Below, in pieces: positions 17,813 through 22,783 of a stretch of 64,000 bases of DNA (position 1 is its first letter; each line of letters begins with the position of its first letter). Location of the stretch: contig OY969414.1 in assembly GCA_963699155.1 (NCBI GenBank), forward strand, positions 1,899,757 through 1,963,756. The letters are read 5' to 3'. A program made the translations under genes and the position numbers. The notes under the pieces are model-generated. The model was not told the origin of the DNA. It saw nothing but the letters and a program-made list of their open reading frames with translations, and ran no database searches. The stretch is from an uncultured Chlamydiales bacterium. GTDB taxonomy: Bacteria > Chlamydiota > Chlamydiia > Chlamydiales > JAAKFR01.

Positions 17813-19081
17813 ATGCCATTTACATTCACCATGCCCAAACTCTCCCCCACCATGGAAGAGGGAACGATTGCCAAGTGGCATAAAAAAGAGGGCGATTTTG
17901 TCGCTGAGGGCGATCTTCTCCTCGAAGTGGCCACCGACAAGGCGACTGTGGAGCATAATGCTCTCGATGAAGGATGGCTCAGAAAAATCTTGGTGTCAGA
18001 AGGAAAATCGGCCACCATCAATCAACCACTCGCCATCTTCACTGAAAAAGAGAAGGAGAGTATCGAAAGTTATCAAGTCAAAGAGCCTCCCAAAGCGGCA
18101 GCCCCAGTAGCTGCCGAAGAAAAGAGGGCTGAAGCCAAGCCACAAGTCGCTACTCCCACACTGAGTCAACCCGCTTTTGTCCCTGAACCGCCGCTTGCTC
18201 AGCCTACAGCAGAACCGAAGGATCGACACCTCCGTGCCTCTCCTCTCGCCAAACGACTAGCAAAGGAGCAAGGGTTGGACATCACCACCGTTAAAGGAAC
18301 AGGTCCTGGAGGACGCATCACCAGCAAAGATTTGGGCCAAGCGCAGCCGACAGGAGTGGTCACCTTTGGACGCGAGGAAGAGCCGACAATCCCCGCAGGA
18401 AGCTACGAAGAGATTCCCTTGAGCCCCATGCGCAAAATCATCGCACGCCGGCTCCAGGAGTCCAAAAGTTTCATTCCCCATTTTTATGTGAAACAGCTGG
18501 TCGATGCCGAGCCCCTCATCCTTCTCCGAGAGCAGCTCAAAACGTTTGGCCTCTCTGTTACCTTCAATGACATGATCCTGAGAGCCTGTGCCCTCGCTTT
18601 GAGAGAGCATCCCGAAGTGAATAGCGGTTTCAATTCGGTCAACCAGACAATCATCCGCTTTAAAACGGTCGACATCGGTGTGGCAGTGAGTTTCGAGGGC
18701 GGCTTGATCACCCCGATCGTGCGCCACGCCGATTTCAAAAACCTGGGTCAAATTTCGACAGAGGTTCGCGCGCTTGCAGAAAGAGCACGGGCGATGAAGC
18801 TGAAAGAGGAGGAGTATAAGGGAGGATCTTTCTGTCTTTCCAATCTAGGCATGTTTGGGATCACTGAATTCACTGCCGTCATCAATCCTCCCCAATCAGC
18901 CATCCTCGCTGTGGGTGGCATCACAGAAGCTCCTGTCGTCAAAGAAGGCAAAGTGGTGCCAGGGAAAACCCTTACCTTAGTCCTGAGCGCCGACCATCGG
19001 GTGGTCGATGGCGCCCACGGAGCCCAATTCATGAAAACAGTGCAGAAGCTGTTAGAAAACCCAGTTTCCCTTACGCTCTAA
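17813..19081 (+). CDS. pdhC: Pyruvate dehydrogenase E2 dihydrolipoamide acetyltransferase
   Basis: Lipoyl ATDKA, E3-binding domain, DHRVVDG. Confidence 0.95.
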   Translation: MPFTFTMPKLSPTMEEGTIAKWHKKEGDFVAEGDLLLEVATDKATVEHNALDEGWLRKILVSEGKSATINQPLAIFTEKEKESIESYQVKEPPKAAAPVAAEEKRAEAKPQVATPTLSQPAFVPEPPLAQPTAEPKDRHLRASPLAKRLAKEQGLDITTVKGTGPGGRITSKDLGQAQPTGVVTFGREEEPTIPAGSYEEIPLSPMRKIIARRLQESKSFIPHFYVKQLVDAEPLILLREQLKTFGLSVTFNDMILRACALALREHPEVNSGFNSVNQTIIRFKTVDIGVAVSFEGGLITPIVRHADFKNLGQISTEVRALAERARAMKLKEEEYKGGSFCLSNLGMFGITEFTAVINPPQSAILAVGGITEAPVVKEGKVVPGKTLTLVLSADHRVVDGAHGAQFMKTVQKLLENPVSLTL

Positions 19082-19104
19082 ACGAGCATAGCGAGTTCCC
19101 TGGC

Positions 19105-19489
19105 GCGCCGAAGGTCGCTCGCGGCCCTCAACGGGCCGCTGCCACTCCCAACGGCGCTAGTAACCTCCACTCACCTGGTTCCGCTCGATGTCGAGCCTAC
19201 GACCTCGAAATCGCCGCCGATCTCATCGCCCAAGTAGACTTTTGATGGAAGAGTTTGAGTGGCCTAAGGGCGAGCCGTTGCGAAGCTTCGGCGAGCCCCC
19301 CACCCCGGCCTTCGGCCGAGGCGAAGCTTCGGCGAGCCCCCCACCCCGGCCTTCGGCCGAGGCGAAGCCGAGTGCTGAAGCCGCGGGTAAACTTTCTAAA
19401 TTAATTTGAGAAACGTCCAAACGGACTCGGCAATTGGCGCCGTTGGGAGTGGCAGCGGCCCATTGAGGGCCGCGAGCGACCTTCGGCGC
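19105..19489. repeat. 53-bp GC-rich inverted repeat pair (19105-19157 / 19437-19489), REP-like
   Basis: GCGCCGAAGGTCGCTCGCGGCCCTCAACGGGCCGCTGCCACTCCCAACGGCGC and its reverse complement with 1 mismatch. Third copy at 20426-20478. Confidence 0.9.
19280..19368. repeat. 41-bp perfect tandem repeat x2 plus a partial copy
   Basis: GCGAAGCTTCGGCGAGCCCCCCACCCCGGCCTTCGGCCGAG at 19280 and 19321, followed by GCGAAGC. Confidence 0.95.
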
Positions 19490-19668
19490 CTTTCCCCCGC
19501 GCCTGTGACCAAGGCTGCGCCAGCAGCCGAGTGTCACAGCGACGGGCTTAATTTGTCGATTTTTTCACAGCCTCTCTGCGCTTCTAGCAGAGAGTAAGTA
19601 GTGGCGTAAGAGAGCTTCTAATTCTTTGCAGAAATCGCCTACAAATAGGCATGCTTTTCAATGAGCAA

Positions 19669-19747
19669 AAAAAATAACAGGATCGGCCGGCCCCAAATAA
19701 ATTTGGGGACCCCCCGGCCGGCAGGATCCCGCAAAGCGGGGCAGGAT
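19669..19747 (+). repeat. Left arm of inverted repeat flanking the GxxExxY gene
   Basis: 79 bp; reverse complement of 20277-20354 apart from one A indel. Confidence 0.95.
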
Positions 19748-19752
19748 AGGAT

Positions 19753-20166
19753 ATGGTACATGCTCAGTTCACATCACTTATTTTAAAAACCTGTTTTGAT
19801 GTAGCCAATGAACTTGGAGTTGGTTTTCTAGAGAACGTTTATAAAAATGCTCTTGCTGTGGCTTTGAGAGAATCTGGCTTCAAAATCGAGATTGAAAAAC
19901 CTTTTGAGGTAATTTTTCACGGGAAACAGATAGGATTCTATATCGCTGATCTTGTTGTTCAAGAATGTGTAATCGTAGAAGCCAAATGCTGTAGAGCGCT
20001 ACTTCCCCAACATCAGGCTCAATTGATTAATTATCTTGCTATATCGAAATGTCCCATAGGATTGCTGATCAATTTTGGGAATAAGAGATTAGAAATCAAA
20101 CGTGTGCAACATCCGGATTACGAAAATTCAGAGGATCGGCTTGCCCCCGAAGGGGAACACAAATAA
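19753..20166 (+). CDS. GxxExxY family PD-(D/E)XK nuclease-like protein
   Basis: ELGVGFLENVY, ADLVV...IVEAK, AQLINYL, GLLINFG; 137 aa. Confidence 0.9.
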   Translation: MVHAQFTSLILKTCFDVANELGVGFLENVYKNALAVALRESGFKIEIEKPFEVIFHGKQIGFYIADLVVQECVIVEAKCCRALLPQHQAQLINYLAISKCPIGLLINFGNKRLEIKRVQHPDYENSEDRLAPEGEHK

Positions 20167-20248
20167 AGAGCTCCCTCCCTTGAAAAAGAAAAAATAATGA
20201 CAATTGTATGAAGAAACATTCTTTTTCAAGGGAGAGAGCTCTTTATTT
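20161..20248. repeat. 30-bp stem-loop directly after the GxxExxY gene
   Basis: AAATAAAGAGCTCCCTCCCTTGAAAAAGAA (20161-20190) pairs with 20219-20248, 1 mismatch. Confidence 0.85.
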
Positions 20249-20276
20249 GTGTCACTTTGTGACGCAAGCCGACCCC

Positions 20277-20354
20277 ATCCTGCCCCGCTTGCGGGATCCT
20301 GCCGGCCGGGGGGTCCCCAAATTTATTTGGGGCCGGCCGATCCTGTTATTTTTT
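20277..20354 (-). repeat. Right arm of inverted repeat flanking the GxxExxY gene
   Basis: 78-bp reverse complement of 19669-19747. Confidence 0.95.
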
Positions 20355-20394
20355 ACCCATATAAGAAGTGCTTTTTGCTCAAATTTCTGATCGT

Positions 20395-20497
20395 ATGGAA
20401 GAGCTTGAAGCGGCCTAAGGGGCGAGCCGTTGGGAGCGGCAGCGGCCCATTGAGGGCCGCGAGCGACCTTCGGCGCGCAGGCGAGGGAACTTGCTAG
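20395..20497. repeat. Outer REP-like repeat copy
   Basis: 20426-20478 is inverted relative to 19105-19155. 20395-20432 is a near-direct copy of 19245-19280. Confidence 0.85.
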
Positions 20498-21585
20498 GCT
20501 ATAATTAAGCCGTTGAGATCGGCTAGAGCCCTTTGGTGAATCTCTAAGCTATTTTGTGCATCAAAGATCTCATAGAGCTCGCCTTTCTCTTCCTCGATAG
20601 CGTGGCTGAGACTTTCTCCACTGACGATTTTCCCATTTTGATAGTGGACAATGGCGATTGGCTGCCAGCAGCCAGCGAGATAGAAGCCATTTTTCCCCAG
20701 CTCTCCAGAAGCTCCTCCCCCTTCAAACTTCCATAAGGACTGCGGCCCTCTGACCGACCAGAAGCCTTCCGCTCGGCTCACATCTTCGTTCCAATCCCTT
20801 TCGATATAAGAGCCCAGCTTCCGTCCATTGAGAGGATCGAAGAAGGAATAGAGGCAGGAAAAAATGATCGCTGTGGCATAAAAAGGGGCTTTGACGATGC
20901 GGAAGAGTGAGTTTTTCCATTCGACAACAATCTCTTTTGCCTTCAGATCTTTAGCTGCTAAAATGTAGAAGGGGATGACAAAGAGACGCAAAATGTTATA
21001 GGCAATAGCGCCCACCATATGAACAGGCGTAAACGCTCCGACAACTAAGCTGACTGCATAGTGATCCTGCTCCCCTTTGACTCCATACATGTAGGCAAGA
21101 CCATTTCCTGCTTCATCTAAGGTAGACTTATCGATATATCCAGGATAGAGACCATGCTTTTTGCTCGCATAATAGGCTGACTCCCAGTAATCCTCACCGG
21201 AAAATTTCCCACTGTCCTGGTTGCTCAGAGGGTCTTGCTTGTATTTGAGGTTCGCAATGATAGCCACTGCCCCGCCAGTGAGCGCTACCAGGGGAATGGC
21301 CGCCAATTCGACATGGACCCAGTTGATATTCTGGAACCATTTCACAAAGTCTTGTGGAAAGGTGGTGAGCTGTTGATTGAGAGCTAAGATAGCTACCGTG
21401 ATGGCGATAATCATCACTACAAAAAGGGTGACACGGAGGGCAACGCGTGAACGGTATTCAAGGGGCATTTTTTCTTGGTAGGTACTATTGTTGGTCTGGA
21501 TCAGAGCCAGCTTAGAACCCATTTCCTGAGTACGAATCTGCGGTAACTGTGGGAGGGGGTCCCAACCCTTGGGAAATGATGCCAT
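20494..21585 (-). CDS. Hypothetical multi-pass membrane protein, paralog A
   Basis: Shares GRKLG..IERDWN..VS..EG.WSV.G...FEGGG...GFYLAGCWQP with the upstream gene. Confidence 0.75.
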   Translation of the reverse strand: MASFPKGWDPLPQLPQIRTQEMGSKLALIQTNNSTYQEKMPLEYRSRVALRVTLFVVMIIAITVAILALNQQLTTFPQDFVKWFQNINWVHVELAAIPLVALTGGAVAIIANLKYKQDPLSNQDSGKFSGEDYWESAYYASKKHGLYPGYIDKSTLDEAGNGLAYMYGVKGEQDHYAVSLVVGAFTPVHMVGAIAYNILRLFVIPFYILAAKDLKAKEIVVEWKNSLFRIVKAPFYATAIIFSCLYSFFDPLNGRKLGSYIERDWNEDVSRAEGFWSVRGPQSLWKFEGGGASGELGKNGFYLAGCWQPIAIVHYQNGKIVSGESLSHAIEEEKGELYEIFDAQNSLEIHQRALADLNGLIIA

Positions 21586-21592
21586 AAAATTT

Positions 21593-22783
21593 TCACCCGA
21601 TTGCTTTTTTTAGTGCGCGTGCTTCTTGAAAAAGCTGTTCGCCTTGAGTAGAGGCCGTTAAAGGGGTATCCACTGCAGCTGAACTCTCTTCATAAGAATG
21701 GCGCGCAAAGATTTGAGCAGAGACAAATTTCCCACCCTTTATCGTGCCAACGCCGGAGGGTTGCCAACAGCCCGCCAGGTAAAAACCAGTCCTACCTAGC
21801 CCTTCGGGTCCGCCACCACCCTCAAAGTGGAAGTGATCTCCAGCCCCACCCACCGACCAGTAGCCCTCATTGAGGCTGACCTCATCATTCCAGTCACGCT
21901 CGATCGAAGCACCCAGCTTTCGGCCTCCCATGGGGTTGACAAAGGTATAGAGCGCTGCCATGAAATAGGCCAGAGCGTAGAAAGGAGCTTGCACGACACG
22001 TTTGATCGATTTGGCAAATTCTTTGGGAATATCGGAGAGCTCAAAGGGACGAGCTCCCTCCACAGGTGGCATACAGCCTGTTTTTTCAACGACTAAGCGA
22101 AATAGGATGCAGAAGGGAATGATAATGGCTCGAAATGCATTGTAGGCGATGACTGCCACCATATAGACGGGAGCTAACAAACCGATCTGGTTACTGACAA
22201 GACAGTGGCCTGTAGGGTCTTTGATATAATAGAAGAAAATCTTTCCATCACCATTTTCATCTAGGGTCGACCGGTCGAAATAGAAATGGCTATCCTCAGA
22301 GTAGACTTTCCCCTGGCTGTTTTGTCGTTTATAGGTGACATGGCTGACCATCAGCTGGTCGCCAATATTACGGAAAGAGCCGCGATCTGATTCCAGCATC
22401 TGATCTTTTTTATGAGTCGCACGGTAGATAATAAAAATAGCGCCGCCGATCAAAACTGCTGCAATTCCTCCGCCTATGGCGGCGTGAATGGGATTGATTT
22501 GCCTTGCCCAGTCGATCAGGTTTTGAGGAAAGCTACCGATCTGACCTGTGAAGGCTAAAACGGCTAGAGCAACCACCGTCACAAACAGTAGAGAGTAAGC
22601 GCTGTTTTTGACCAGGGTCCCTGTCGTAAAGGTTTCGTTGTAGGATTCCTTAAAAGCGTAAGCTTTAAATTCCGGATTTGACTCGATCTCCTTGAGGCGA
22701 TCGGTTAAAACAGATGCCTTCTGGCCTTGCCAGGAATAGGAAAAGGTGGATTGGCTTGCTAAAGAGAGAGAACTACAACACAT
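21593..22783 (-). CDS. Hypothetical multi-pass membrane protein, paralog B
   Basis: Tandem paralog of 20494-21585. Confidence 0.75.
   Translation of the reverse strand: MCCSSLSLASQSTFSYSWQGQKASVLTDRLKEIESNPEFKAYAFKESYNETFTTGTLVKNSAYSLLFVTVVALAVLAFTGQIGSFPQNLIDWARQINPIHAAIGGGIAAVLIGGAIFIIYRATHKKDQMLESDRGSFRNIGDQLMVSHVTYKRQNSQGKVYSEDSHFYFDRSTLDENGDGKIFFYYIKDPTGHCLVSNQIGLLAPVYMVAVIAYNAFRAIIIPFCILFRLVVEKTGCMPPVEGARPFELSDIPKEFAKSIKRVVQAPFYALAYFMAALYTFVNPMGGRKLGASIERDWNDEVSLNEGYWSVGGAGDHFHFEGGGGPEGLGRTGFYLAGCWQPSGVGTIKGGKFVSAQIFARHSYEESSAAVDTPLTASTQGEQLFQEARALKKAIG

Follow-up and report, generated by a model that had tools for sequence, protein, structure and literature searches.

A GxxExxY nuclease gene framed by inverted arrays of short repeat units in an uncultured Chlamydiales bacterium, and a candidate partnership between repeats and nuclease

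The stretch of DNA analysed here (the window; 64,000 nucleotides (nt) from the genome of an uncultured Chlamydiales bacterium, GenBank assembly GCA_963699155.1, contig OY969414.1, positions 1,899,757 to 1,963,756) carries a small gene of the GxxExxY (PDDEXK_3) family, a putative nuclease gene enclosed by two inverted arms of reiterated short units. Such an inverted unit-array frame is a property of the GxxExxY family in many phyla, which suggests a selfish DNA partnership. The window cassette, with its close inverted bracket, its reiterated 6-8-nt units and a unit type matching its protein clade, fits this design and is a hairpin-inflated local version of it. The best-supported reading of these sequences is that the nuclease would recognise its own unit arrays, to which we assign a probability of about one in two.

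The array frame as a property of the GxxExxY family

The gene (19753..20166, plus strand) encodes a protein of 137 amino acids (aa) that matches PF13366 over profile positions 2-117 of 117 (E 1.5e-36, 125.7 bits, cut-off 22) and the full profile of TIGR04256, 'GxxExxY protein' (E 2.7e-38, 130.9 bits, cut-off 35). PF13366 is its sole Pfam match. In a 14-sequence alignment of the window protein and 13 relatives, the motif residues G24, E27 and Y30 as well as D66, E76 and K78 fall in invariant columns. Together with the profile matches, this agrees with a preliminary description of the locus, made from the letters alone, as a 137-aa GxxExxY PD-(D/E)XK gene with intact D...EAK residues. The predicted model of the protein (predicted local distance difference test, pLDDT, 90.6) has a restriction-endonuclease-like fold. 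The top Foldseek matches of the model are all PD-(D/E)XK proteins, namely 4ic1 (Cas4 SSO0001, E 2.8e-5), 4r5q, 3syy and 1avq (E 2.8e-5 to 6e-3, template modelling score ~0.5), and the predicted structure is most like Cas4, then like lambda-exonuclease and RecB-type nucleases. No chain of a solved structure matched by sequence up to E = 10, and the protein was assigned to no family in PADLOC or PHROGs. Its last ~19 residues have low pLDDT and are missing from homologs. GxxExxY/PDDEXK_3 is a large family that occurs in bacteria, archaea and viruses. The one survey found to list it gives its function as 'Unknown' (PMC3424549).

Inverted repeats around these genes were scored in two sets of genomes. 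Among 41 related genomes, the one analysed here included, PF13366 matches were found in 19, and the inverted repeat score reached at least 30 at 20 of the 23 testable full-length loci (shuffles gave ~18 +/- 2); 10 of these 20 framed loci are near-identical copies in one genome. The second set was a broad scan with one genome per species, in which the best 80 loci came from more than 15 phyla including archaea, and 74 were testable. Here a score of at least 30 was reached at 47/74 GxxExxY loci versus 1/267 shifted control windows, and a score of at least 40 at 34/74 versus 0/267. The proposal that GxxExxY loci generally have flanking inverted repeats of short units, put forward as a check in the preliminary description, was thus strongly supported. 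We found no published description of GxxExxY cassettes framed by unit arrays in the literature searched.

Across the family, the arms consist of units of the type CACAGAG, CACGGAG, CACAGAT, CACGGAT or CACGAAA, spaced 8-11 nt apart, and the upstream arm often ends 0-40 nt before the start codon. When the two arms of a locus are compared, mismatches affect 56/824 positions (6.8%) in the reiterated cores versus 166/687 (24.2%) in the spacers; the units rather than the spacers are conserved between arms.

Furthermore, the type of unit follows the phylogeny of the protein. On a tree of 92 proteins, 55 rows of which could be labelled by the last base of the unit, the labels require 2 changes, versus 15-17 in five shuffles. 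A basal split (Shimodaira-Hasegawa-like approximate likelihood ratio test, SH-aLRT, 95) separates 36 rows, comprising all 14 T-type, all 4 A-type and the window protein, from 56 rows that contain all 37 G-type rows, and the T, A and G types each span many phyla. The window protein shares four out of five signature residues of the T clade (F15, F25, E48 and G109) and its own unit ends in GAT; the clade in which it is found has units ending in GAT or GAA, its long branch making the exact placement unsure. As far as sequences can tell, the match between clade and unit shows a long-term constraint on the units and is not proof of recognition.

The genome encodes a second intact GxxExxY protein, a divergent paralog of 125 aa located at 2249367-2249741 of the genome between mutS-like and uvrC-like genes. 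It belongs to the G clade and is framed by ACGCAAAG/ACGCAGAG arrays (C1:2249300-2249900; L008:1425-2025). The gene of the window had been described as a lone gene; it is indeed the only intact copy of its cassette lineage, and it is not alone in the genome, which holds this paralog and fragments besides. The downstream arm of the second paralog is followed by three tandem repeats, ~50 nt each, of arm-like sequence.

Unit arrays are also found apart from genes. The genome holds 61 arrays of at least three octamer units, and at least 12 palindromes without a gene are of the ACGCAAAG type; their ends are arm ends, and they have a conserved loop of their own that occurs in either orientation. Triple CACAGAG arrays are present in 11 of the 41 related genomes (a backwards control pattern gave 0-1 matches per genome), and PF13366 was detected in 10/11 array-bearing versus 9/30 array-free genomes, these being related genomes and not independent samples. 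In one genome of the same genus (G001, 74% complete), 23 triple CACAGAG arrays occur, and PF13366 has no match there at E <= 0.001. Either the arrays outlast the gene or the gene is in sequence missing from the assembly.

Further arrays in the genome show other arrangements. Long tandem octamer arrays are found at C1:520342-520767 and 2337297-2338072, with nine copies at a 50-nt period and seven at a 125-nt period. Five close pairs of the CACAGAG type (C1:376718-376788, 522769-522841, 706031-706102, 835360-835431 and 1156957-1157034) are all 'inside-out', CTCTGTG arrays being followed by an A/T-rich loop and then CACAGAG arrays, which is opposite to the gene-flanking arms. No intact gene with CACAGAG-type arms was seen in the genome, only a fragment beside an array at ~1712 kb.

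Anatomy, copies and surroundings of the window cassette

The core of the inner arm pair (19669-19734 / 20289-20354) is 66 nt long and 100% complementary. The full arms measure 82 and 81 nt (19669-19750 and 20274-20354) and differ by one 1-nt indel, in the loop of the small hairpin, and by one mismatch. Of the 79/78-bp inverted arms with one indel reported previously, the inversion and the indel therefore stand, whereas the extent is revised and a mismatch added. Reading the order of units in the sequence gave the same modular structure as described before. The left arm (19669..19752 with its last unit, plus strand) consists of ACAGGAT (19677-19683), a 37-nt hairpin (19684-19720), GCAGGAT (19721-19727), a 13-nt hairpin (19728-19740), GCAGGAT (19741-19747) and AGGAT (19748-19752), directly followed by the ATG at 19753; the right arm (20274..20354, minus strand) is its reverse complement. 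Each arm thus has three (A/G)CAGGAT units plus AGGAT, at an unusual spacing with hairpins between the units. The 37-nt hairpins are GC-rich, and one hairpin holds a second one in its loop. The left arm abuts the ATG, and its final units also provide an AGGA that resembles a Shine-Dalgarno sequence.

The right arm is displaced by ~110 nt from the gene by a nested palindrome of 143 nt (20133..20275, no strand assigned), which encodes the last ~19 codons and the stop codon. The 30-bp stem previously placed after the stop codon exists, with an actual length of 34 nt (20157-20190 / 20219-20252, 97%), and it spans the stop codon. Rfam gave nothing for the cassette at gathering score, and only sub-threshold matches to generic long hairpins (miRNA-type) at this stem. 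The hexamer ATCCGG at 20111..20116 (plus strand), inside the last conserved codons, is likely a degenerate leftover of the ancestral first unit of the right arm, judging from a by-eye alignment with the gene end of a congener, where ATCCTG units overlap the last codons.

The unit that recurs in the genome (19589-20425) is larger than the arms and what they enclose, and is present in six copies, only the window copy being intact. Two stretches of the gene, bases 152-289 and 319-378, are deleted in copies A, B and D, and copy C has lost these and more. The deletions shared by copies A-D remove D66, E76 and K78, and since they are the same in all four, it was a nuclease-dead derivative that multiplied. 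In copy E, a solo arm, little is kept besides the right arm. The post-stop stem also varies, its loop being flipped in copy A and the whole stem deleted in copy C. An assembly artefact was rejected, since the genome was assembled into one contig and each of the six copies has flanks of its own. Short contigs from three DNA runs of one soil-metagenome study are identical to the genome and include pieces of other copies; a 139-nt skip in them corresponds to the deleted copies and a loose end to the A/B/D flank; as evidence, these contigs are not independent.

The same cassette lineage is present in two congeners. In the first, each arm is composed of GAGGAT, an 8-nt hairpin, GCAGGAT, a 2-nt spacer and GCAGGAT, the downstream arm overlaps the last codons, and the gene (L136, reverse strand, ~1700-1800) is broken by a 75-nt perfect hairpin inserted within the open reading frame (ORF). 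In the second, where the gene is nearly all lost, the arm reads ACAGGAT, a 13-nt hairpin, GCAGGAT, a 14-nt hairpin and ACAGGAT. The hairpins between units are thus 8 nt and none, 13 and 14 nt, and 37 and 13 nt in the window, with the CAGGAT units kept throughout; from these sequences, hairpins between conserved units seem to vary and grow. Within a copy, both arms bear identical hairpins. As independent insertions would not explain such matching hairpins, we infer arm-to-arm copying or repair.

The entire inserted block (19085-20497, 1.41 kb) lies between pdhC, which encodes a dihydrolipoamide acetyltransferase (17813..19081, plus strand; PF00198, PF00364, PF02817), and a convergent gene of 363 aa (20494..21585, minus strand) that has no Pfam or NCBIfam match. 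It had been placed between pdhC and glgP, which is correct on the pdhC side; on the right, the adjoining gene is the 363-aa gene, and glgP is two genes further. The 363-aa gene and its 396-aa neighbour, two paralogous minus-strand genes at 20494-22783 between pdhC and glgP, are without Pfam or NCBIfam match, and have homologs at the same position in three congeners. Sequences of these three same-genus genomes show pdhC followed by the homolog of the 363-aa gene with a gap of ~10-90 nt, and nothing resembling 19085-20497 was found at this site in any of the three. This answers an earlier suggestion to look for empty sites in relatives, and by this sequence comparison the 1.41-kb block is an insertion. 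The pdhC genes of the congeners are only 69-74% identical, at which distance the empty site is clear, and the exact junctions and any duplication are unreadable. A Pfam search with four spurious ORFs of the block gave no domain, and the block contains no recombinase gene. A scan for promoters and terminators found no plus-strand promoter-like site, and the counts were at shuffle level.

The remainder of the block belongs to another type of repeat. Positions 19085..19579 (no strand assigned) are a repeat with hairpin-rich arms that resembles a miniature inverted-repeat transposable element (MITE), with a truncated left arm (19085-19157), a full right arm (19426-19574) and a core in which a 41-nt tandem duplication (19274-19355) and an insertion sequence (IS)-type terminus (19381-19420) can be recognised. 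The other end of the block (20426..20497, no strand assigned) is a solo arm module of the same kind plus a unique end of ~20 nt, and this segment reaches into the stop codon of the 363-aa gene. The preliminary description had an outer 53-bp inverted pair closing the cassette; this pair belongs to an abundant and unrelated MITE-like family. A third copy of the 53-nt sequence is present within the block (19437-19489), a BLAST search of the genome with the arm module gives 35 hits when self-matches are counted, and the 53-nt module forms the arms of a MITE-like family of ~570 nt, of which ~10 paired copies with 190-370 nt between arms were aligned. Only the outermost ~20 nt (19085-19102 / 20477-20497) pair solely with each other. 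The two copies of the GC-rich 41-nt unit in the MITE-like core are 95% identical, and GC-rich modules akin to it follow the right end of several cassette copies. MITE-like copies at C1:2062456-2063123 and 1636195-1636921 have octamer-array palindromes in their cores, the repeat families being nested in each other.

Possible roles of the nuclease

If the nuclease recognises its own unit arrays, several protomers could bind the units on both arms, and the substrate of the enzyme would be the paired arms, or the hairpin or cruciform arising from them. Together with host replication and repair, this would keep the two arms alike and maintain the cassette, and might occasionally place cassettes, or palindromes without the gene, at other sites. 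On this reading, binding and cutting, as well as any step of copying, are inferred from the sequences. We give the whole explanation, a unit-binding nuclease in an analogue of the repetitive extragenic palindromic (REP) doublets called REPINs and their RAYT genes, built on a nuclease, a probability of about 50%. A partnership similar to that of REP and RAYT fits, because the frame is general, the units are conserved and track the protein clades, gene-less palindromes are dispersed in the genome and relatives have empty sites. The preliminary description had proposed such a REP/RAYT-analogous system; these observations partly support it, whereas the outer 53-nt pair has to be given up as part of it and the local spread need not depend on the nuclease. 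A wider version, that GxxExxY nucleases are the enzyme partner of phylum-spanning palindromic selfish elements, the clade-specific units being read by the protein and the arms kept alike via a nuclease-processed hairpin or cruciform, is put forward as a tentative proposal only.

Several observations weigh against a unit-recognising nuclease. A clear frame is absent at 27/74 loci of the broad scan, and a match between clade and unit is to be expected from common descent, because gene and arms are inherited together. We found no functional account of GxxExxY, PDDEXK_3/PF13366 or TIGR04256 in the literature searched, and we know of no strand-transfer chemistry of the PD-(D/E)XK fold alone. In this genome, the sequence shared by the gene-bearing copies continues past the arms, for ~80 nt on the left and ~70 nt on the right (the left outer segment, 19589..19668, plus strand, outside the inverted arms, is common to all gene-bearing copies, and the right one, 20355..20425, plus strand, to all six copies). 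As the copies have these outer segments in common and neither segment repeats the other, the unit that multiplied here does not end with the arms. The CAGGAT-type arms, 11 full ones and one 27-nt piece, all accompany the six cassette copies and are not dispersed as REPs are. An earlier suggestion to count the arms genome-wide thus led to multiple copies, but to none independent of the cassette. Furthermore, copies A and D are bounded on both sides by the termini of an IS-like element, and copy B is accompanied by one such terminus. The spread of the six local copies does not need the nuclease, and hitch-hiking in a larger repeat or IS-like shell probably did more to multiply the nuclease-dead derivative than the nuclease did. 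In the chlamydial genome G035, with 67 PF13366 matches and 116 triple arrays, all 10 aligned full-length copies (10 aligned of 12 fetched, ~13 matched) lie in one IS5-like element, on the stretch from its transposase gene to its right end, and all 15 aligned fragment copies are inside a second IS5-like element. The high copy number there is hitch-hiking, and the amplification requires no nuclease activity.

Some details of these shells may be added. Copy D, which sits between such termini, has a ~13-nt duplication, seen by eye. As for the family of the IS-like shell, PF05598 matched nothing in the genome and PF13751 gave one below-cut-off match elsewhere in it. Att-like or duplicated ends of the six-copy unit were considered and rejected, the outer segments aligning no better than shuffles (inverted 14 versus 14.7 +/- 2.5; direct 17 versus 14.7 +/- 2.7). 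No cassette-free IS copies were found in G035, where every copy of the first IS with at least 87% identity coincides with a cassette or fragment and the junction is unreadable. Near-identical IS-borne cassettes of that genome differ in their upstream CACAGAG units, with ~2, 3 and 5 of them (L023 versus L021 and L022), pointing to fast gain and loss of units.

The arms might instead act at the RNA level, where a stem in the transcript masks the ribosome-binding site or serves as a substrate of RNase III and so insulates the host operon, in the manner of ORF-bearing intervening sequences of 23S rRNA, the nuclease does not recognise the arms, and spread is passive via IS elements, MITEs and recombination. 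The transcript 19660-20365 is predicted to fold with its arms paired end to end at -337 kcal/mol, versus -190 +/- 6.6 for 20 shuffles, although any perfect inverted repeat folds likewise. The AGGA of the left arm is just 5' of the ATG, the upstream arms that often lie 0-40 nt from the start must be transcribed or overlap the promoter, and hitch-hiking is evident in this genome and in G035. However, arm mismatches compatible with G-U pairing are not in excess (120 sense versus 128 antisense, with 323 transversions, at 66 loci), and the cores stay complementary while the spacers are less strictly so, a difference that a plain stem would not need. A stem that serves for pairing only is disfavoured, since it predicts neither the contrast between cores and spacers nor the lack of a sense G-U excess. 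Neither did the loci match an Rfam family at gathering score, the 20 related loci searched giving one tRNA and none lying in rRNA, and the gene-less palindromes retain the same units though they have no ORF to insulate. We therefore regard an RNA-level role as unlikely.

Identical hairpin inserts in both arms, which need arm-to-arm copying or repair, could also come from a homing-type element, in which the nuclease cuts sites with its own unit type, either unoccupied arrays or gene-less palindromes, and repair from the gene-bearing copy follows, with the arms as short homology and the palindromes spreading by another route. Gene-less palindromes with the unit type of the second paralog share arm ends with the gene-bearing copy, and flipped loops between inverted arms are found, both of which fit. 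On the other hand, the gene-less ACGCAAAG elements have their own conserved loop and stay unoccupied despite an intact paralog, the CAGGAT type has one gene-less copy only (copy E), and arms of this size are short for RecA-type repair, so that homing appears quite improbable. The preliminary description had also raised an invertible segment, that is, a phase switch in which the gene is turned over by recombination of the 80-nt arms. Small loops flanked by nested inverted repeats are indeed flipped relative to the window copy, in copy A (the stem loop) and in copy C (the small hairpin), but the five gene-bearing copies all have the gene pointing the same way with respect to the distinct left and right outer segments, the low-depth contigs of the three metagenome runs contain no strand-change joint, and a recombinase gene is missing from the block. 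Inversion of the gene segment is very hard to reconcile with these observations.

Comparison with known systems and implications

The closest comparison for a nuclease that recognises its unit arrays is with REP/REPIN elements and RAYT genes (Bertels & Rainey 2011, PMC3116915; PMC3337134). In these systems, a gene for a small enzyme has inverted copies of one kind of short palindromic repeat on its two sides, the genome also contains scattered doublets of that repeat without the gene, and the gene itself is usually low-copy, all of which has a counterpart in the GxxExxY cassettes. In contrast to RAYTs, the enzyme here is a PD-(D/E)XK nuclease and not a Y1 HUH (IS200/IS605-like) transposase, and the arms are arrays of 2-5 reiterated 6-8-nt units and not a single REP hairpin. 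The likeness in dispersal is partial, the CAGGAT type having no dispersed gene-less doublets, whereas other unit types in the genome do form dispersed gene-less palindromes.

Intervening sequences of 23S rRNA that bear an ORF, such as that of Leptospira, are another known arrangement, in which a small selfish ORF lies within the stem of terminal inverted repeats at a site tolerated by the host; they sit in a helix of the 23S rRNA and are removed by RNase III. The one of Coxiella burnetii is 428 nt long, with S23p (PMC4990558). Unlike these, the window cassette is intergenic, between pdhC and a protein-coding gene, and has no rRNA match; PF05635, the family of the intervening-sequence ORFs, was not found in the genome, and the cassette arms are unit arrays with sequence-specific conservation. 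With IS elements and MITEs the cassette shares inverted ends, the presence of one intact and several internally deleted copies, and absence from the site in relatives. It differs from them in that the similarity between copies continues beyond the inverted arms and no target-site duplication can be defined for the cassette itself; a transposase domain, too, is lacking among the Pfam matches of the gene and of the block ORFs, in agreement with what had been noted before. Cas4, RecB and lambda-exonuclease nucleases provide the best fold matches of the predicted model, and the catalytic D...ExK is present in the window protein. The latter is much smaller, with a core of ~120 residues, it has no sequence match to a solved chain, and a CRISPR context and a helicase partner are absent at the window locus.

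The clade-specific unit-array frame gives the GxxExxY family a concrete and testable substrate. To this the window contributes a natural series of arms with the same units and different hairpin fillers, and one intact copy alongside catalytically deleted ones, together with a warning that copy number may arise by riding in IS elements. If GxxExxY nucleases do serve a phylum-spanning class of selfish elements, the window would hold an autonomous copy, accompanied by nuclease-dead derivatives, in an environmental chlamydia, with hairpins growing between its units. If the protein acts on its own arms, this would be a partnership of repeat and enzyme built on a restriction-type fold, and it would bear on the origin and persistence of palindromic repeats in bacterial genomes.

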